A DNA stretch of 64,000 nucleotides from an uncultured Bacteroidales bacterium (GCA_964462015.1 CAYWXI010000010.1:19819-83818), one strand, 5' to 3'; counted from the stretch's first letter, positions 14,946 to 33,880 are shown. Notes: generated by a model from the letters alone, not told the origin. Program-made: numbers and translations.

Positions 14946-15911
14946 ATGAAAAAAAACTTATTATTCACATTGATTGCCTGCTTATTTATTCTAACAGGCT
15001 TTTCACAAAGTCTTACTCTACAAACTACTGAAGGAGTTAATATTGAAAATGGTGGTGAAATAACTGTTTACGGTGAAGAAACTGCCGTAGAAATTATTAG
15101 TCATCTTCATGTAACAAATACTAGTGCGTCAGCTATTAATGTATCCGTACACAGAAATCAAATTTATATGGTTGATAATACATTTAGTATGTTTTGTTGG
15201 GGTATATGTTATGGCCCTGATGTTAATCAATCAGCATTTCCAATTGAAATAGCTGCCGGAGCTACAAATGAGGATGATTTTTCAGGGCATTATCATCCTG
15301 AAGGAAATATTGGTACTTCAATAGTTTCTTATACTTTTTATGATGAGAGCAATTCCAATGATTCAATTATGGTCATTATTAATTATGCTGCAGGAATAGA
15401 AGGCCAGGCTATTGCAGTTGAGCCAGGATTCCAATTTGTGTCAAGCAGAATTAATCCAACAAACCCTGACCTGATGGTAGTTGCCATGGATATTATAAAT
15501 GATGATCTTGATTATATAAGAAACTCGGAAGGAGCTATGCTAAGAAAAATCGGGCCAAACTGGGTTAATGGTATTGGTGATTGGGTCGGTACAGAAGGGT
15601 ATTTGGTTAAAACTAACGGAACCGGACAATTCAGTGTTGAAGGTACAGTAATACCCGTTGATACACCAATTAATGTAGAAGCAGGCTTTCAATTTGTAAG
15701 CTATTTACCGGACTTTGGAATGGATGCATTACTTGCTTTTGAAACTATCATTGGAGATAACCTGGTATATATTAGAGATTCCGAAGGTTCCATGTTACGA
15801 AAAATCGGACCGAACTGGGTTAACGGTATAGGAGATTGTGCACCTACTGAAGGTTATTTAGTAAAAATGTCAGGAGATGCTGTCCTGGTTTATCCCGGAT
15901 TTGATAAATAA
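14946..15911 (+). CDS. secreted protein of unknown family, tandem paralog 1
   Basis: Signal peptide 'MKKNLLFTLIACLFILTGFSQS'. N-terminal domain with 'FCWGICY'. Two internal ~72-aa repeats containing 'MLRKIGPNWVNGIGD'. Confidence 0.8.
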   Translation: MKKNLLFTLIACLFILTGFSQSLTLQTTEGVNIENGGEITVYGEETAVEIISHLHVTNTSASAINVSVHRNQIYMVDNTFSMFCWGICYGPDVNQSAFPIEIAAGATNEDDFSGHYHPEGNIGTSIVSYTFYDESNSNDSIMVIINYAAGIEGQAIAVEPGFQFVSSRINPTNPDLMVVAMDIINDDLDYIRNSEGAMLRKIGPNWVNGIGDWVGTEGYLVKTNGTGQFSVEGTVIPVDTPINVEAGFQFVSYLPDFGMDALLAFETIIGDNLVYIRDSEGSMLRKIGPNWVNGIGDCAPTEGYLVKMSGDAVLVYPGFDK

Positions 15912-16311: not shown

Positions 16312-17277
16312 ATGAAAAAAAACTTATTATTCGCATTGATTGCCTGTTTATTTATGCTGACAGGCTTTTCACAAAGTCTTACAATACAAACTCCTGAGGG
16401 AGTTAATATTCCAAATGGTGGCGAAATAACAATTTACGGTGAAGAGACTGAATTCGAAATTATTTGTCATCTTTATGTAACAAATATTAGTGCATCAGCT
16501 ATTAATGTTTCAGTACAAAGAAATCATATTTATATGGTAAGTGGTTCAAATAGCTTGTTTTGTTGGGGTATGTGTTATGATACAATTGTTAACCAATCGG
16601 CATTTCCAATTGGAATAGATGCCGGTGCTACTAATGAAGAAGATTTTGCAGGGCATTATCGCCCATGTGGAAATGTAGGAACTTCAAGGATTTCATACAA
16701 ATTTTATGACGACAATAATGCCAATGATTCAATAATGGTTATTGTTAATTATGCTGCAGGAATAGAAGGCCAGGCTATTGCAGTTGAGCCCGGATTCCAA
16801 TTTGTTTCAAGCAGAATAAATCCAACGGATCCTGATTTGATGGTAGTTGCGAACGATATTATTAATGATGACCTTAATTATATAAGAAATTCAGAAGGAG
16901 CTATGTTAAGAAAAATCGGGCCAAATTGGGTTAATGGAATTGGTAATTGGGTAGGTACTGAGGGGTATTTGGTTAAAACCAGCGGAACCGGACAATTCAG
17001 TGTTGAAGGCTCAGTAATACCCGTTGATACACCAATCAATGTAGAAGCAGGCTTTCAATTTGTAAGCTATCTACCTGACTATGGAATGGATGCCATGCTT
17101 GCCTTTGAATCTATTATTGGGGATAACCTAATATATATTAGAGACTCCGAAGGTTCCATGTTAAGAAAAATCGGACCTAACTGGGTTAATGGTATCGGAG
17201 ATTGTGCACCTACTGAAGGTTATTTAGTAAAAATGTCAGGAGATGCTGTCCTGGTTTATCCCGGATTTGATAAATAA
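16312..17277 (+). CDS. secreted protein of unknown family, tandem paralog 2
   Basis: Same architecture as copy 1. The C-terminal half is nearly identical; the N-terminal ~147 aa is clearly diverged. Confidence 0.8.
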   Translation: MKKNLLFALIACLFMLTGFSQSLTIQTPEGVNIPNGGEITIYGEETEFEIICHLYVTNISASAINVSVQRNHIYMVSGSNSLFCWGMCYDTIVNQSAFPIGIDAGATNEEDFAGHYRPCGNVGTSRISYKFYDDNNANDSIMVIVNYAAGIEGQAIAVEPGFQFVSSRINPTDPDLMVVANDIINDDLNYIRNSEGAMLRKIGPNWVNGIGNWVGTEGYLVKTSGTGQFSVEGSVIPVDTPINVEAGFQFVSYLPDYGMDAMLAFESIIGDNLIYIRDSEGSMLRKIGPNWVNGIGDCAPTEGYLVKMSGDAVLVYPGFDK

Positions 17278-17682: not shown

Positions 17683-18651
17683 GTGAAAAAAAAATTATTA
17701 TTCGCATTGATTGCCTGTACATTTATGCTGACAGGCTTATCGCAAAGTCTTACACTACAAACTCCTGAAGGAGTTAATGTTCCAAATGGTGGCGAAATAA
17801 CAATTTACGGTGAAGAAACTGTATACGAAATCATTAGTCATCTTTTTGTAACAAATATTAGTTCAACAGCTATTAATGTTTCAGTTCAAAGACATCAAAT
17901 TTATCTGGTAGAAGGTTCAGGTAACTTGCTTTGTTGGATGATGTGTTTTGATTCTACCGTTAACGTTTCATTATTTCCACTTGAAATAGCTGCCGGAGCT
18001 ACAAATGAAGAAGATTTTTCAGGGCATTATCGTCCGTGGGGAAATGTAGGAATTTCAAGGATTGCATACACTTTTTATGACGACAACAACCCAAATGATT
18101 CTATAATGGCTATTATTAATTATGCTGCAGGTATTTCATCAAGTCAAACTATTGCAATTGAACCCGGATTCCAATTTGTGTCAAGCAGAATTAATCCAAC
18201 TGACCCTGATATGATGGCAGTTGCTATGGACATTATAAATGATGATCTTGTGTATATTAGAAATTCAGAAGGATCTATGTTAAGAAAAATCGGGCCAAAC
18301 TGGGTTAATGGTATAGGTGATTGGGTTGGTACCGAAGGGTATTTGGTGAAAACTAACGGAACCGGACAATTCAGTGTTGAAGGCTCAGTAATACCCGTTG
18401 ACACACCAATTAATGTAGAAGCAGGCTTTCAATTTGTAAGCTATCTACCTGACTATGGAATGGATGCCATGCTTGCCTTTGAATCTATTATTGGGGATAA
18501 CCTAATATATATTAGAGGCTCCGAAGGTTCCATGTTAAGAAAAATCGGACCAAACTGGGTTAATGGTATCGGAGATTGTACTCCTACTCAAGGATATTTA
18601 GTAAAAATGTCAGGAGATGCTATCCTTGTTTACCCCGACTTTGGTAAATAA
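17683..18651 (+). CDS. secreted protein of unknown family, tandem paralog 3
   Basis: GTG start in the ORF track. Same architecture as copies 1 and 2. The motif variant is 'LCWMMCF'. Confidence 0.8.
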   Translation: MKKKLLFALIACTFMLTGLSQSLTLQTPEGVNVPNGGEITIYGEETVYEIISHLFVTNISSTAINVSVQRHQIYLVEGSGNLLCWMMCFDSTVNVSLFPLEIAAGATNEEDFSGHYRPWGNVGISRIAYTFYDDNNPNDSIMAIINYAAGISSSQTIAIEPGFQFVSSRINPTDPDMMAVAMDIINDDLVYIRNSEGSMLRKIGPNWVNGIGDWVGTEGYLVKTNGTGQFSVEGSVIPVDTPINVEAGFQFVSYLPDYGMDAMLAFESIIGDNLIYIRGSEGSMLRKIGPNWVNGIGDCTPTQGYLVKMSGDAILVYPDFGK

Positions 18652-25673: not shown

Positions 25674-25693
25674 GAATGTATTTTTTTTAGCTG

Positions 25694-25701
25694 CAAATGT
25701 A
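25694..25701 (-). promoter_or_regulatory. candidate -7 box (TACATTTG) for guaB
   Basis: Plus strand reads CAAATGTA, about 21 nt upstream of the ATG at 25673. Confidence 0.45.
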
Positions 25702-25836
25702 TAAAAATTTAACTTTAGTTTTTATTAAAAATTGTTAAAGTGAAAAATGGATGAAAGAATTCTGTTTATTAATCCATTGCAATCTCTGGATTTTGGGTAT
25801 TGATTATAAAAACGGTATAGGGAAAATATGGGTATA

Positions 25837-25866
25837 ATGGAAATTGATGGTAATTGATGGAAATTC
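25837..25866. repeat. 3 x 10-bp tandem direct repeat ATGG(A/T)AATT(G/C)
   Basis: 'atggaaattg atggtaattg atggaaattc'. A further ATGG lies 9 nt upstream. Located 37 nt beyond the stop of the 213-aa gene. Confidence 0.8.
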
Positions 25867-25902
25867 TTTGAAAACTCTTTCTCGTTTTTTATCGGGATGG
25901 AT

Positions 25903-26544
25903 TTATAAGTTGGAGGGATTTATTAATAACATTACAGATTCAGATAAATGATAAAAAGCAATTGTATCTTTCGGTATTTCTCTTTTAGGGTTATAAATTA
26001 TTTTAATATCATTTTCCATAACTGAAATTAAACCAATATTATCTTGTCTAAATAAATCAATATCTACATTTTTTATATATTTTGCAGAAACTGCCAAATA
26101 ACTTTTATGTGAAAAACACTTATACCTAAGAGCCTGATAATAACCCTCTTTCCATTTACTTAACTTTGCTTCTATTGAAATAATATTTTTTATTGGAGAC
26201 TTATACAGTCTTTCAACAATATAACAACCTTCTCGTTCTGACACATAACCACCATCTAGTAATTTAGTTATTAAACTTAAAAATGTCTTAGAATTAAGAT
26301 TCTTATTAGACACAAGTTTTTCAGGATGAATTACTTTACCTTTTCGATTTAAAAAATTGATAAGGTAATACATCTCACTATAATTATTAATTGAAACAGA
26401 TGGCTTTTCATCATTTGGAGTTGCTACAGTCAGGTCAGATATTCCGTTACCTGAATTAAATTCACGTATGAATTTAGCGTTATCAAATTTCTGATAAAAC
26501 GCTTGTTCAATTACTGGTAACATCTCGTTCTCGAATCTAAACAT
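25903..26544 (-). CDS. 213-aa protein with a winged-helix segment and an ExK nuclease-like motif (possible PD-(D/E)xK fold); kinase partner
   Basis: 'GISDLTV' (D37) and 'IISIEAKLSKW' (E125/K127) flank a helix-rich wHTH-like segment, 'SEMYYLINFLNRKGKVIHPEKL...LITKLLDGGYVSEREGCYIVERL'. Its ATG lies inside the last codons of the kinase gene. Confidence 0.45.
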   Translation of the reverse strand: MFRFENEMLPVIEQAFYQKFDNAKFIREFNSGNGISDLTVATPNDEKPSVSINNYSEMYYLINFLNRKGKVIHPEKLVSNKNLNSKTFLSLITKLLDGGYVSEREGCYIVERLYKSPIKNIISIEAKLSKWKEGYYQALRYKCFSHKSYLAVSAKYIKNVDIDLFRQDNIGLISVMENDIKIIYNPKREIPKDTIAFYHLSESVMLLINPSNL

Positions 26545-28582
26545 ATTGCTCCTTTATTTTAGAAAAAACATTTTTCCATCGCTCCAAATGTCTGTAATCA
26601 TTAGGCTTAAATACCATAGATAATTTCTTGTAATTATCTATCGACTGATTAACTCTACCAATAAAATATTCAATTCTTTCCACAGAATCTAAACTTAATA
26701 TTTCATCAATTTCTTTATGAATTAATTCTAAGTAATGAAGTTTTGTACTTCTTGATGGTTTAATCAAATCAGGAACAGGTTTTCCAGTACAATAACGACA
26801 ATTACAATCACCTAATACATTTACAATCTGTTGTAATCTAATAGGGTCTTTTCTTGTTATGGAAATTGTTCCTAATAATTCTGGAAAATAATATCGTTCG
26901 TACATATTGAATGCGTCTGAAGCTTCTTTATAAAGGTCTTCATAGAAACTCTCAAATCTAGCAGCACCTGATGTAAATCCAGTAATACCAGCACAAATTA
27001 GACCCAAACCTAAAGTATCTAAACGACCAGCTATTACAGGTTTTTGAGTATATTTCTGTAATTCGGCTAATGTTGTAATATAATGATAAAGTGTTGCTTC
27101 TGTTGTGTCTTTATTAATACCATCAGCATAAATAACAAAACCATCACAACCAATTGCAGCATATGTATTTAGCAATTCTGATTTATATTGAGAATCTGTT
27201 AATCCTAAAGCATTTATACAAATTCCTGCAAACAGAGGTTTATCTTGCAAACTCTCATTGTTATTCCTGTAATCCAAAGATTCTTTTAAAAGTTTAATAT
27301 CTAAATCAAACCACTCCTCTACAGGATTTCGCTTTGCCGTTGGTAATATATTAGTGTTATGTGAATAATGATAGGGAGAAGTCAATATATCCGCTTGAAG
27401 CTTTACTTGTTCGTCTATAACTAATTTTACGTACTGTCTCTGCTTTTTGTGTGAAGATAGATAAGCAGGATTAATAACTGAATAATCTTGAGGGCAATAT
27501 GTGAGTTGCAGAAGACCTTTTACATCTGAATAAGTATCATAAGCCAATCTAATAGTTGCAGGGTCAAACAAAGTTGTATACTCGTTTTTTTGAACAAGCT
27601 CTAATAATCCCTTTTGCCTAAATTGATGATTGACTGGATAGTTAATATGTAAATGTTTATTCGGGTTATCCTTTTTGAATTGCTTTAGTACTGATAAGTC
27701 ATCGTATGTTCTTAAAATAAATCTTGGTGTTAAATCTGATTGAATTTGTCTTGATGATACACTTGCCTGATAAAATTCCAATATTAATTCTTCAATATCA
27801 ACATATCTTTTATATGGTTGTTTTTCAAGAAGCTTTAATACAATATTTTCATGATGATTTGAAATTGACCTATCCCATTTCCGAGGAGGTGTTGGCGGTT
27901 CATTATTTATTTTATCAATAAACTCAGGTACTAATCTGGCACTATATGGAAGACGACCAGTTAGAATTTCATAAAAAATCATTCCAAGTGAATACAAATC
28001 ACTTCTATAATCTATATGCTTACTATCTGTAATTTGTTCAGGCGACATATAAGCAAATGTACCCAGTATGTTGCCAGTACTCGTAATGCTTGTGTAATCA
28101 AGCAATTTAGATAATCCAAAATCTAAAACTTTGATACCACCATTTGACTGAATTATGATATTTTCAGGTTTTAAATCTCTGTGAAGAATATTTGAACTAT
28201 GTAATGCTTTTAAACCTTCCGAAATATTTAAAAATAGCTTCTCCTTTTCAGAGATATTTTCAGATTGTATTAGTTTTCTTAGAGTTTGTCCTTCAATGTA
28301 CTCCATTACTAGAAAAACATGTTGGATATTAAGAACCTCAAGAAAAAAATGTTCAATATAATCAACAAGAAAAGGATGATTGACATTTTGCATTACTTCA
28401 ATCTCACGAGTAATCCGATTATCCTTACCTTTTTTATACTCAGCCAAAATATAAGCTTCTCTAAAAATTTTTATTGCAAACTTTTCTCCTGATTTTTCTG
28501 TAAGATATACCGAACCAAACCCGCCTTCTCCAATAAAATCAAGGAACTTATATCCATTTATATTTTGTCCGATTAGTTCCAT
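26537..28582 (-). CDS. Hanks-type Ser/Thr protein kinase fused to a ~400-aa uncharacterised C-terminal domain with a CxCxxC...H cluster
   Basis: Residue numbers follow the ORF track (TTG start at 28603); the ATG at 28582 is the likelier start. G-loop 'GEGGFGSV', 'FAIK' K45, 'HRDLKPEN' D143, 'DFG' D161, 'YMSPE'. C-terminal 'CNCRYC' at C600/C602/C605, then H623/H629. Confidence 0.9.
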   Translation of the reverse strand: MELIGQNINGYKFLDFIGEGGFGSVYLTEKSGEKFAIKIFREAYILAEYKKGKDNRITREIEVMQNVNHPFLVDYIEHFFLEVLNIQHVFLVMEYIEGQTLRKLIQSENISEKEKLFLNISEGLKALHSSNILHRDLKPENIIIQSNGGIKVLDFGLSKLLDYTSITSTGNILGTFAYMSPEQITDSKHIDYRSDLYSLGMIFYEILTGRLPYSARLVPEFIDKINNEPPTPPRKWDRSISNHHENIVLKLLEKQPYKRYVDIEELILEFYQASVSSRQIQSDLTPRFILRTYDDLSVLKQFKKDNPNKHLHINYPVNHQFRQKGLLELVQKNEYTTLFDPATIRLAYDTYSDVKGLLQLTYCPQDYSVINPAYLSSHKKQRQYVKLVIDEQVKLQADILTSPYHYSHNTNILPTAKRNPVEEWFDLDIKLLKESLDYRNNNESLQDKPLFAGICINALGLTDSQYKSELLNTYAAIGCDGFVIYADGINKDTTEATLYHYITTLAELQKYTQKPVIAGRLDTLGLGLICAGITGFTSGAARFESFYEDLYKEASDAFNMYERYYFPELLGTISITRKDPIRLQQIVNVLGDCNCRYCTGKPVPDLIKPSRSTKLHYLELIHKEIDEILSLDSVERIEYFIGRVNQSIDNYKKLSMVFKPNDYRHLERWKNVFSKIKEQYV

Positions 28583-28607
28583 GCTAGATATTTTTATGAA
28601 CAAATAA

Positions 28608-28615
28608 CAAATTTA
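28608..28615 (-). promoter_or_regulatory. candidate -7 box (TAAATTTG) for the kinase operon
   Basis: Plus strand reads CAAATTTA, 26 nt upstream of the ATG at 28582. Confidence 0.4.
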
Positions 28616-28711
28616 ATAATAATTTTTTAATTGCTCAATTTCTTCTTGCTTCAAAATACTACTGTCTTTTTTTTTAGGTTTTTTCAATCTATTAGTTTTG
28701 TAATTTCAATA

Positions 28712-28719
28712 CAAAAGTA
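28712..28719 (-). promoter_or_regulatory. second candidate -7 box (TACTTTTG) upstream of the kinase operon
   Basis: Plus strand reads CAAAAGTA, about 130 nt upstream of the ATG at 28582. Confidence 0.3.
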
Positions 28720-28815
28720 AATTTTATTTCTTTTAAACTGCCTTGCTATTTTACAATCTTTTACACATGTGTCAAACAATCATAGTAATACATCTATGAA
28801 TAATAAATGTACTTC

Positions 28816-32644: not shown

Positions 32645-33880
32645 TTACCATTCAATACTTAAAAACTCCCTCAAATGTAAATGTTTGATCCCATGATACG
32701 TATTTCCCTGAAATTCATCCATCGAAACCACGAATTTCGGGTAATTGTCCTTTATTTTTAAAAGATTTCCGTATTCTCTTTGGATGGTATTTTCATTAGT
32801 AATTAAATAAGCCACCTGTACATACATTGTTTCATTTTGTTTTTGGCAAACAAAGTCAATTTCATTTTCGTCCAATATTCCAATACTTACCTGAAAACCA
32901 TTTATCATAAGATGCAAAAAAACGGCATTTTCAATCAGTTTACCAATATCGGCAGGTTTATTTTTTGCAATAGAGTTTCGTAAGCCCCAGTCTTCAAAAT
33001 AATATTTTTCATTGGTTTCAAAGATTTTTTTTCCTTGAATATCCTGCCTGAGAACTTTATAAATCAGCATAGCCTCTGTTACGTAAGTCAGGTAATTCAG
33101 TACAATTTGTGTTGACATATTTACCCTTTGCGATTTTAAGTATTTGCTAATTTTGTTAGCTGAAACCAAACTCCCGATATTATCGGCAAGAAACCTGACC
33201 AGTCCCTCCAGAAAGTTAACATTCCGTATATTATGCCTTCTTACTACATCTTTAAACAATACGGTTGCATAAACATTTTTCAGATATTCATAAACAACTG
33301 TTTCATTAAGATCAAGATGTTTCAGATATGGCAATCCACCATAGGTCATATACTTTTTCAGTGACTCATTGTTGTTTTCTAATTGATGAAATTGTAGAAA
33401 CTCTGGAAACGTTAAGCTGAAAATTTTTATTTCGATATACCTTCCGCTTAAATGCCCGGCAATATCGCCCGAAAGAAGTTGTGAGTTGCTCCCTGTACAA
33501 TAAATATCATACTTCCCGGAGGCAAGTAAACTTCTCAACGATTTCTCAAAATTCAAAATATCCTGAACCTCATCAATGAATAAATAATTTTTACCAGGCA
33601 AAGTTAGAGTTTCAATAAACTTATTCAAATCGTTATTATCAGTAATAAAGTCGAAATCGGAAAGTTCTTTGTTGATATAAATGAAATTGCTTTTAGCGTT
33701 ATTTTCGGCGATGTAATCCATTAGCTGGTACATAATGTAGCTTTTACCTACTCTTCGTTGCCCAATAAATACTTTTATGATCTCTTTATCAATAAAAGGT
33801 AATATCTTTTTAAAATATGTTTCACGCGGAATATACTCTTTGATATATTCACTATAATGATATTTCTTTATGTCATTCAT
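32645..33880 (-). CDS. AAA+ ATPase of the COG1373 type with DUF4143-like C-terminal domain
   Basis: Walker A 'GQRRVGKS', Walker B 'LFIDEVQ'. C-terminal 'EIDFVCQK...YVQVAY' block. Confidence 0.8.
   Translation of the reverse strand: MNDIKKYHYSEYIKEYIPRETYFKKILPFIDKEIIKVFIGQRRVGKSYIMYQLMDYIAENNAKSNFIYINKELSDFDFITDNNDLNKFIETLTLPGKNYLFIDEVQDILNFEKSLRSLLASGKYDIYCTGSNSQLLSGDIAGHLSGRYIEIKIFSLTFPEFLQFHQLENNNESLKKYMTYGGLPYLKHLDLNETVVYEYLKNVYATVLFKDVVRRHNIRNVNFLEGLVRFLADNIGSLVSANKISKYLKSQRVNMSTQIVLNYLTYVTEAMLIYKVLRQDIQGKKIFETNEKYYFEDWGLRNSIAKNKPADIGKLIENAVFLHLMINGFQVSIGILDENEIDFVCQKQNETMYVQVAYLITNENTIQREYGNLLKIKDNYPKFVVSMDEFQGNTYHGIKHLHLREFLSIEW

Follow-up and report, generated by a model that had tools for sequence, protein, structure and literature searches.

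A candidate defence cassette pairing a tRNA-guanine transglycosylase-like barrel with a winged-helix nuclease-fold protein in a Bacteroidales genome

The window analysed here is a stretch of 64,000 nucleotides from an uncultured Bacteroidales bacterium (GCA_964462015.1 CAYWXI010000010.1:19819-83818). Its minus strand carries two overlapping genes, the first of which encodes a Ser/Thr kinase fused to a domain resembling the tRNA-guanine transglycosylases (TGTs), while the second encodes a small partner protein with a nuclease fold. An initial annotation, made from the sequence alone, had proposed that the two genes form a kinase-coupled sensor/effector pair. The analysis reported here suggests that the novelty of this locus probably lies in a candidate defence cassette whose central domain family is undescribed; neither of the two families, barrel or partner, nor the association between them was found described in any paper or library entry. 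The two genes and their principal parts are as follows.

26537..28582, minus strand: kinase/TGT-like fusion gene, 681 amino acids from the ATG at 28582, stop codon at 26537-26539.
27803..28552, minus strand: Hanks-type Ser/Thr kinase domain, residues 18-267 (PF00069).
26540..27736, minus strand: TGT-like (β/α)8 barrel with C-terminal zinc subdomain, residues 290-688, predicted with AlphaFold2 and Foldseek.
27554..27565, minus strand: D347-P-A-T350 motif at the end of β-3, the D-P-x-T hallmark of the superfamily.
26912..26980, minus strand: GFTSG (residues 542-546, end of β-8) followed by AARFESFYEDLYKEASDA (residues 547-564).
26735..26806, minus strand: predicted zinc-site motif C600-x-C602-x-x-C605...H623, from conservation and alignment with an archaeosine TGT.
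26537-26544, minus strand: 8-nucleotide stop/start overlap ATGTTTAG, the octamer that the stop of the kinase-barrel gene shares with the partner ATG.
25903..26544, minus strand: partner gene, 213 amino acids, predicted PD-(D/E)xK fold with a winged-helix insert (AlphaFold2 model, predicted local distance difference test, pLDDT, 95.2; invariant residues; Foldseek top match 3dnx).
26209..26382, minus strand: predicted winged-helix insert, residues ~55-112, between the D37 strand and the E125-x-K127 strand.
26122..26175, minus strand: catalytic-type motifs I-E125-A-K127 and Q137-A-L-R-Y141, invariant in 89 sequences.

Calling open reading frames (ORFs) on the window delimits the two genes as 26537..28603 (688 amino acids) and 25903..26544 (213 amino acids), both on the minus strand. 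The frame of 688 residues described initially does exist; nevertheless, the TTG at 28603 is the start of the longest possible ORF only, and the true start of the gene is probably the ATG at 28582, which yields a protein of 681 residues. This start is favoured because the homologues begin at a methionine equivalent to M8 (MELIGQ) and because the exact 681-residue sequence, not the 688-residue form, is present in the public protein collection. It should be noted that residues are numbered throughout according to the 688-residue form; numbers for the 681-residue protein are lower by 7. The octamer overlap between the two genes and their flanks had been described correctly: a MacB_PCD/FtsX-type permease is encoded upstream of the pair, and guaB (inosine monophosphate dehydrogenase, IMPDH; expectation value E 8e-160) lies downstream on the same strand. 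Database searches returned 327 relatives of the kinase-barrel protein and 90 of the partner. Since the motifs discussed below are invariant or nearly so across these relatives, they represent more than chance resemblances.

The kinase domain matches PF00069 over residues 18-267 (E 1.2e-53; 182.6 bits against a cut-off of 31.7), and the family profile finds the PknB and StkP structures in the PDB at E 1e-45 to 1e-48. Its motifs are GEGGFGSV (residues 25-32), FAIK with K45, HRDLKPEN (141-148, with D143 and N148), DFG (161-163, with D161) and SPE (187-189); recomputation returned these, as well as the cysteine cluster of the barrel described below, at the coordinates given in the initial annotation. 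The kinase therefore looks active, since conservation of its catalytic residues reaches at least 90% among 76 homologues. The protein carries the NCBI name ‘serine/threonine protein kinase’. In a second clade of fusions of ~680 residues (P0263, P0292, P0301, P0313, P0317, P0333, P0355 and P0358), HRD and DFG are replaced by HQD(I)KPxN and DLG, and the Gly-rich loop is absent; judged by these motifs, its members carry atypical or non-RD kinase-like domains on the same barrel.

The remainder of the fusion protein, residues 290-688, lies outside known families, as had been suspected: no Pfam, NCBIfam, PADLOC or PHROG match to it was found in the window protein or in 25 relatives. The AlphaFold2 model of this region, built from 77 sequences (pLDDT 90.4; predicted template modelling score, pTM, 0.90), consists of eight β/α units, a β-hairpin and a helical C-terminal part. 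In a Foldseek search of the PDB with this model, bacterial TGTs occupy ranks 1-4 and 7 (E 1.1e-5 to 5e-4; template modelling score, TM, 0.50-0.58), with alignments that span ~400-420 columns, whereas other TIM barrels reach only TM ~0.33 on the query, against a TMq of 0.50-0.54 for the TGTs. As modelled, the barrel is thus shown to have the tRNA-guanine transglycosylases as its nearest structural relatives, in agreement with the fold tentatively assigned before. The likeness extends to the order of the eight β/α units, to the β-hairpin and to the C-terminal zinc subdomain with CxCxxC...H, features that the model shares with both TGT (PF01702) and DpdA.

The zinc-site motif is part of this resemblance. 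CNCRYC occupies residues 600-605 (nucleotides 26789-26806), and His623 follows at +18 within KLHYLE. C600, C602, C605 and H623 are invariant in the family alignments A1 and A3, and C600, C605 and H623 stay at 90% conservation or above when the wider superfamily is aligned. The domain profile aligns the predicted Zn motif to that of the archaeosine TGT 1iq8 (C279/C281/C284...H); this alignment, insignificant alone at E 1.7, is the only biologically sensible match of the profile among PDB sequences. At the sequence level, no relation of the barrel to TGTs was otherwise detected: there is no PF01702 match at E up to 10 in 26 barrel members, an hhalign comparison of the barrel family with E. coli Tgt gives a local probability of 2.4% and globally nothing, and the superfamily profile has no match among PDB sequences.

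TGT and DpdA share three invariant active-site aspartates, which act as general acid/base, in base recognition and as nucleophile, respectively, and mutation of the acid/base or the nucleophile aspartate abolishes exchange (PMC10164549). For the barrel, the corresponding positions were inferred by matching its predicted strands manually to the E. coli Tgt sequence, which is a manual register and not a computed superposition. In this register, the acid/base aspartate is kept (TLFD347PAT at the end of β-3 against ILTD89SGG of E. coli Tgt), the base-recognition aspartate is lost (ILTSPYHY against IVMIFDEC, i.e., SPYH for FDEC), and the nucleophile is replaced by Ser/Thr (GITGFTSG against GIDMFDCV, i.e., GFTSG for MFDCV), the last as the initial annotation had proposed. 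The D347PAT motif is invariant in A1 and A3 and is at least 90% conserved when stand-alone relatives of the barrel are included. The glycine-rich block spans residues 526-550. Within the kinase-fused clade, few parts of the barrel are as well conserved as the stretch after β-8, AARFESFYEDLYKE (residues 547-560), and many further polar residues are invariant in this clade. The loop 547-564 (nucleotides 26912-26965; domain residues 258-275), which follows the position of the TGT nucleophile, is the only segment that AlphaFold2 cannot place (pLDDT ~35). It carries conserved Ser and Tyr residues, and most stand-alone relatives, too, have an acidic residue at position 551. The barrel is not a member of the TGT/DpdA family by sequence or by catalytic residues; what it has in common with that family is the fold and the zinc site. 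Further differences from TGT and DpdA are its fusion to a kinase here and its constant pairing with a small nuclease-fold protein.

In the AlphaFold2 model of the partner, strand 24-30 is followed by strand 35-43 (with D37), an insert (55-110), strand 118-127 (with E125-x-K127), helix 131-143 (with Q137-x-x-x-Y141) and strand 147-153. According to this model, the partner is a PD-(D/E)xK core with a domain inserted between β-2 and β-3. D37, which sits in ISDLTV, and E125 and K127, which sit in IEAKLSKW, had been located correctly from the start and are invariant in 89 sequences together with E28, F29, G32, Q137, R140 and Y141. Secondary structure of the insert consists of helices 55-65, 74-81 and 85-97 and strands 101-104 and 107-110, and Foldseek matches it to the DNA-binding winged-helix domains of GntR, FadR, MarR and CodY. 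The partner profile gives weak matches to SarR and SarZ and no match to Mrr_cat or any other Pfam family. The top Foldseek match of the whole partner is 3dnx (E 2e-4), termed a PD-(D/E)XK structure by Laganeckas et al. (PMC3045609). These results agree with the nuclease fold and the winged-helix insert predicted initially, and neither profile nor structure searches placed the barrel or the partner in a well-characterised metabolic or signalling family. A phospho-acceptor residue specific to kinase-linked partners was also considered and rejected, as S123 and the SHKS motif occur in a single clade only and follow no regular pattern.

Linkage of the two genes was assessed in 33 loci, obtained by a pattern scan with the partner alignment in one genome per species (GTDB representatives). 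These loci come from Bacteroidota, Calditrichota, Ignavibacteriae, Phycisphaerae, Patescibacteria, and metagenome-assembled genomes (MAGs) labelled Hyphomicrobiales, Marinobacterium, Peptostreptococcaceae and an archaeon. The two genes are always adjacent, the kinase-barrel gene being immediately upstream of the partner in all 31 loci with enough upstream DNA; across homologous loci, the tblastn match to the kinase-barrel protein ends between 5 nucleotides inside and ~28 nucleotides before the start of the partner match. Linked pairs are also found in the genomes of two isolates: that of Sulfurospirillum barnesii SES-3, with an overlap of 8 nucleotides and an adjoining NERD/Zn-ribbon gene, and that of Marivirga aurantiaca, where the two genes stand between an HsdM remnant and an MNT/HepT pair. 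On the mobilizable plasmid p6_CACC119 of Priestia megaterium (L125 5984-8653), the kinase-barrel gene and a partner homologue (hhalign 99.75%) are convergent, overlap by ~36 nucleotides and adjoin YolD-like and UmuC-type damage-repair genes. Overall, the spread of the pair is patchy, including Bacteroidota, Campylobacterota, Bacillota and several other phyla known from MAGs. A decayed copy, in which both genes are frameshifted, was found in the chromosome of Paraflavitalea speifideaquila (L032 7947-10598).

The position of the pair next to guaB is peculiar to the window. Eighty metagenome loci with a guaB gene 67-78% identical to that of the window all lack the kinase, the partner and the permease upstream of it, and most keep the downstream order guaB, PPIase and a 281-residue gene. 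Because not one of these 80 related loci carries the pair before its guaB gene, the pair is an accessory insertion at a synteny break and not a universally conserved core pair, and its closeness to guaB is incidental. The downstream neighbours of the closest relative (L001) differ from those of the window. A tie of the pair to guaB or purine metabolism was rejected on account of these loci and of the genes next to the pair elsewhere, where no IMPDH gene is found among the 82 neighbour proteins of 30 loci. It should be noted that this neighbour scan covered two genes on each side and that 25 of the 82 families matched by the neighbour proteins are listed; all negative statements about neighbours below have this scope.

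With a profile built from three sequences of the domain alone, a full HMMER search through 1.8 billion cluster representatives yielded 195 relatives of the barrel. The best 150 include 34 long proteins and 59 stand-alone barrels of 360-450 residues, which are unnamed and have no Pfam domain; the kinase motif is present in none of the 59. In one arrangement, a gene of 226-238 codons precedes the stand-alone barrel gene, either overlapping it (L034-L036 and L040) or 14 nucleotides upstream (L128). The product of this small gene is a homologue of the window partner (hhalign 99.5%, E 1.6e-22; 97.7% for L128), and it precedes the barrel in L034, L040 and L128. The pair of L034 adjoins holin, lysin-type, YolD and recombinase genes; a tblastn search of a phage collection with a stand-alone relative from a phage-like neighbourhood found nothing. 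In another arrangement, common to all six loci with a PIN-type gene, a PIN_3 gene follows and overlaps the barrel gene, and beyond it lies a convergent gene for 220-236 residues, which encodes a partner homologue in both loci compared (hhalign 99.6%). Neighbours of this arrangement include an integrase with type III-like restriction-modification (R-M) genes, a SIR2-like gene, a Bil cluster, and MmeI-type R-M with Fic. One such cassette of barrel, PIN_3 and partner homologue interrupts a ribosomal protein cluster, separating rpsJ (S10) from rplC (L3) (L126 5001-7302). The partner homologues of kinase-less loci keep IEAK/VEVK and Q-A-x-R-Y/H (Tyr being replaced by His in L128).

Barrel and partner thus remain linked through three gene orders. 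Together, the kinase-fused and kinase-less loci show that the constant core consists of the TGT-like barrel and the winged-helix nuclease-fold partner, and that the third module is exchangeable, being a fused kinase, a separate PIN nuclease or none. The interpretation of the initial annotation is supported for the most part, with one correction: the kinase is not the organising part, because relatives devoid of it keep the TGT-like protein and the same nuclease.

The genes found next to the pair outside the window provide another line of evidence. These observations are tallies of individual loci. In six loci (L017, L020, L025, L027, L028 and L029), the pair lies inside a type I R-M operon between hsdM and hsdS/hsdR, in the order hsdM, kinase-barrel, partner, hsdS, hsdR (e.g., L025 2477-11535). 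In five of the six, i.e., all but L020, a gene for a PD-Lambda-3_A-like protein of 161 residues stands between the partner and hsdS. L020 has one frame break in the barrel region, maybe due to a long-read assembly error. Other neighbours include Mrr_cat, AbiEii, Eco57I, N6_N4 methylase, ResIII and integrase genes. The pair shows the generic genomic features of defence systems: patchy spread, variable location, and defence or mobile neighbours.

These findings are best explained, in our opinion, by a conflict or defence cassette, which we consider likely; the defence function itself is suggested by gene context. Among known systems, it would work most like modular defence cassettes that couple a sensor to an effector. 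That the cassette is self-contained and mobile, directed most likely against phages or plasmids, and built of a sensor and an effector, with the barrel as the sensor, is a more specific proposal to which we assign about an even chance. Since the nucleophile and base-recognition aspartates are absent, the barrel is presumed to have lost TGT-type base exchange, and it would now serve as a sensor recognising nucleic acids or bases and as a specificity module. Binding of a cue by the barrel, such as foreign or modified DNA or an altered tRNA, would release or activate the partner endonuclease, which the winged helix would keep on DNA. In the kinase-fused clade, the cue-bound barrel might also turn on the kinase as a second output or switch; phosphorylation of the partner or of host or phage proteins would then stop the infection or kill the infected cell. 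A bolder version of this proposal, put forward tentatively and considered rather unlikely, is that recruitment of the TGT fold has given rise to a new class of immune receptor: a non-exchanging, base-flipping barrel would sense a nucleic-acid state that typifies infection, or excise the offending base, and license effectors. Candidate states to be sensed are DNA of phages with 7-deazaguanine or other hypermodification, or an altered tRNA anticodon loop, and candidate effectors are the winged-helix PD-(D/E)xK endonuclease, the PIN RNase and the fused Hanks kinase.

Several observations weigh against the defence cassette with a non-exchanging sensor barrel. The likeness to TGT is structural only (Foldseek E 1e-5, TM 0.54) and concerns a predicted model, and sequence profiles do not join the barrel to TGT. 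The absence of catalytic aspartates rests on the manual secondary-structure register, and the conserved acidic E551 in the unmodelled loop could still serve catalysis. The genes around the pair in the window are entirely housekeeping, many of its neighbours elsewhere are ordinary housekeeping genes as well, the GC content of the pair is not deviant, and no direct repeats or insertion scars flank it in the window. Several of the taxonomic labels come from short MAG contigs, for which binning errors are possible.

The best-surviving alternative, which we nevertheless consider unlikely, is that the two genes form a minimal R-M-like pair, in which an active base-exchanging or base-modifying barrel marks the DNA of the host, as DpdA does with preQ0, and the nuclease cuts unmarked DNA, the kinase or PIN protein being regulatory or a back-up. 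An obligate linkage of an enzyme-like protein to a nuclease, in both tandem and convergent orders, would be expected of such a pair; type II R-M pairs show variable gene orders. The invariant D347, at the general acid/base position of TGT and DpdA, and the many invariant polar residues of the kinase-fused clade, as in enzymes, also fit, as does the occurrence of Hanks kinases beside DNA-modification enzymes in BREX type 2 (PglW) and MADS (Mad6), whose mad6 models score well here. However, the manual register retains only one of the three required aspartates, no genes for preQ0/queuosine synthesis or for a DpdB-like ATPase are found among the 82 nearest neighbours, in contrast with Dpd systems, and there is no sequence-level relation to PF01702. 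Joint decay of both genes in the L032 copy fits a dispensable cassette equally well.

Comparison with BREX and MADS is instructive in this respect. Like PglW and Mad6, the two genes bring together a Hanks kinase, a module of the DNA-modification type and nucleases within a defence setting, and mad6 models match the kinase domain well (E 4e-65 in PADLOC; 1.5e-37 in NCBIfam). The scores are nevertheless far below the NCBIfam cut-offs (129.4 against 460 bits for MAD6; 58.8 against 990 for PglW), and the system described here is a two-gene cassette. Among the families listed for the neighbours of the 30 loci, there is no PglZ of BREX; mad2 models match three neighbour proteins, and the same proteins match generic DNA methyltransferase models. 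The defence kinases Stk2 of Staphylococcus and PD-T4-6 of E. coli likewise share with the fusion protein a Hanks-type kinase with complete catalytic motifs (PADLOC, PD-T4-6 E 9e-67 and Stk2 3e-29). The PD-T4-6 match covers positions 7-282 of a model of 292 positions, and models of 450-550 positions are matched in their kinase part only. Since only the kinase domain is matched by these models, the gene may receive the label PD-T4-6 from automated tools. The matches to both end where the kinase domain ends, the longer C-termini of PD-T4-6 proteins being unmatched; moreover, unlike these kinases, the kinase here is an add-on to a barrel-nuclease core that exists without it. PD-T4-6 is modelled as a single-gene system.

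A second alternative, to which we give little credence, is a tRNA-directed abortive-infection or toxin module, in which the barrel grips the tRNA anticodon loop and presents it to, or guards it from, the PD-(D/E)xK or PIN nuclease, so that translation is shut down, as with PrrC. The nearest folds are indeed those of tRNA enzymes, PIN_3 genes occur in the kinase-less branch, and VapC-type PIN toxins commonly cut tRNA or rRNA. Embedding of the pair between hsdM and hsdS/hsdR in six loci mirrors the prr locus, where PrrC sits inside EcoprrI in the same way. Nevertheless, the partner that is always present has a winged helix of the GntR/MarR type, which binds double-stranded DNA, and carries the QxxxY motif, characteristic of RecB-type DNA nucleases; the residues with which TGT reads guanine-34 are not conserved in the manual register. 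Unlike PrrC and RloC, to which the proteins are unrelated, the pair has no ABC-ATPase or anticodon-nuclease domain, and most of its copies, including that of the window, lie outside R-M operons.

Systems that resemble the pair in other respects differ from it in architecture. Mrr-type and other winged-helix PD-(D/E)xK type IV restriction enzymes also combine a winged helix with a core carrying D...ExK; in the partner, however, the winged helix is inserted between β-2 and β-3 instead of being N-terminal, and the partner depends on a TGT-like protein. CapK-CapS-VapC offers an analogy, as a kinase answering a nucleic-acid cue controls a PIN or other nuclease in an immune or toxin-antitoxin (TA) setting (PMC13373217). 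In that system, CapK is a GHKL kinase of the anti-sigma-factor type and CapS is a STAS-domain repressor, and there is no TIM barrel (PMC13373217). Identity with CapK/CapS is thus ruled out, CapK being a GHKL and not a Hanks kinase.

We judge it highly doubtful that the genes constitute a selfish TA or addiction cassette that stabilises only its own mobile DNA, with no anti-phage role. The tight two-gene operon with overlapping frames, the plasmid copy and the phage-like or integrase-linked neighbourhoods, the presence of other TA pairs nearby (MNT/HepT and AbiEii), and the copy inside a ribosomal protein cluster, a place where a selfish insertion might sit, would all be in keeping with such a cassette. 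However, its large component (681 residues), with an elaborate sensor-like domain, is unlike simple antitoxins, and R-M embedding together with closeness to Bil, SIR2-like, NERD and R-M genes forms a defence-island pattern; moreover, TA and abortive-infection roles are not mutually exclusive.

A housekeeping signalling or repair pair, e.g., a Ser/Thr kinase that acts together with guaB and whose barrel senses a purine or queuine metabolite, or an accessory DNA-repair nuclease, is very improbable: the location directly upstream of guaB on the same strand, the housekeeping surroundings in the window, the plain NCBI name and the best fold match of the partner (3dnx, which we take to belong to a family linked to DNA repair) would agree with it, but the adjacency to guaB is unique to the window (0 of 80 guaB loci; no IMPDH among the 82 neighbours), guaB has its own promoter-type box, the patchy spread crosses phyla and includes a plasmid and phage-like neighbourhoods, and the guanine-recognition residues of TGT are not kept.

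Should the cassette protect against phages, the domain families known in immunity would gain one, namely a TGT-shaped zinc barrel that lies outside Pfam, NCBIfam, PADLOC and PHROGs. A protective cassette would also provide a compact and tractable case for the role of a Hanks kinase in defence, a question that is open for Stk2, PD-T4-6, PglW and Mad6, and the natural series of barrel with nuclease, barrel with nuclease and PIN, and kinase-barrel with nuclease would amount to a built-in dissection of sensor and effectors. Should the barrel have kept an activity on bases, it might represent a new enzyme that modifies nucleic acids or recognises bases.

The intergenic regions on both sides of the pair contain the following candidate signals.

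28583..28815, minus strand: upstream intergenic region, with two TAnnTTTG boxes, a sigma70-like site and a palindrome.
28608-28615 and 28712-28719: TAnnTTTG boxes upstream of the kinase-barrel gene.
28775-28748: best sigma70-like hexamer pair in the upstream region.
28759-28776: palindrome ACACATGTGT / TTTTACACATGTGTCAAA, overlapping the best sigma70-like hexamer pair.
25674..25902, minus strand: downstream intergenic region, with a 10-bp repeat array and the guaB box.
25837-25866: three head-to-tail 10-bp repeats ATGGWAATTG, 37 nucleotides past the partner stop and ~165 nucleotides upstream of the guaB start.
25694-25701: promoter-type box TACATTTG of guaB itself.

Both TAnnTTTG boxes named in the initial annotation are present; however, the motif is not enriched in the window, with 99 occurrences against 114 +/- 11 expected by shuffling. 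For this reason, the boxes alone are no evidence of a promoter, and a promoter role is suggested by their position only. The palindrome could be an operator. The threefold repeat described past the 3' end of the pair is present as ATGGWAATTG, and no terminator-like hairpin was found downstream of the pair (25674..25902).

Two further observations concern other parts of the window. Two genes upstream of the permease, an AAA_14/DUF4143 ATPase gene occupies 32645-33880 on the minus strand; it showed no link to the pair. Finally, three tandem paralogous ORFs on the plus strand (14946-15911, 16312-17277 and 17683-18651) encode proteins of 321-322 residues that are 79-86% identical and have zero Pfam matches; all three have an N-terminus resembling a signal peptide and contain an internal duplication (GFQFVS...IRxSEGxMLRKIGPNWVNGIGD).

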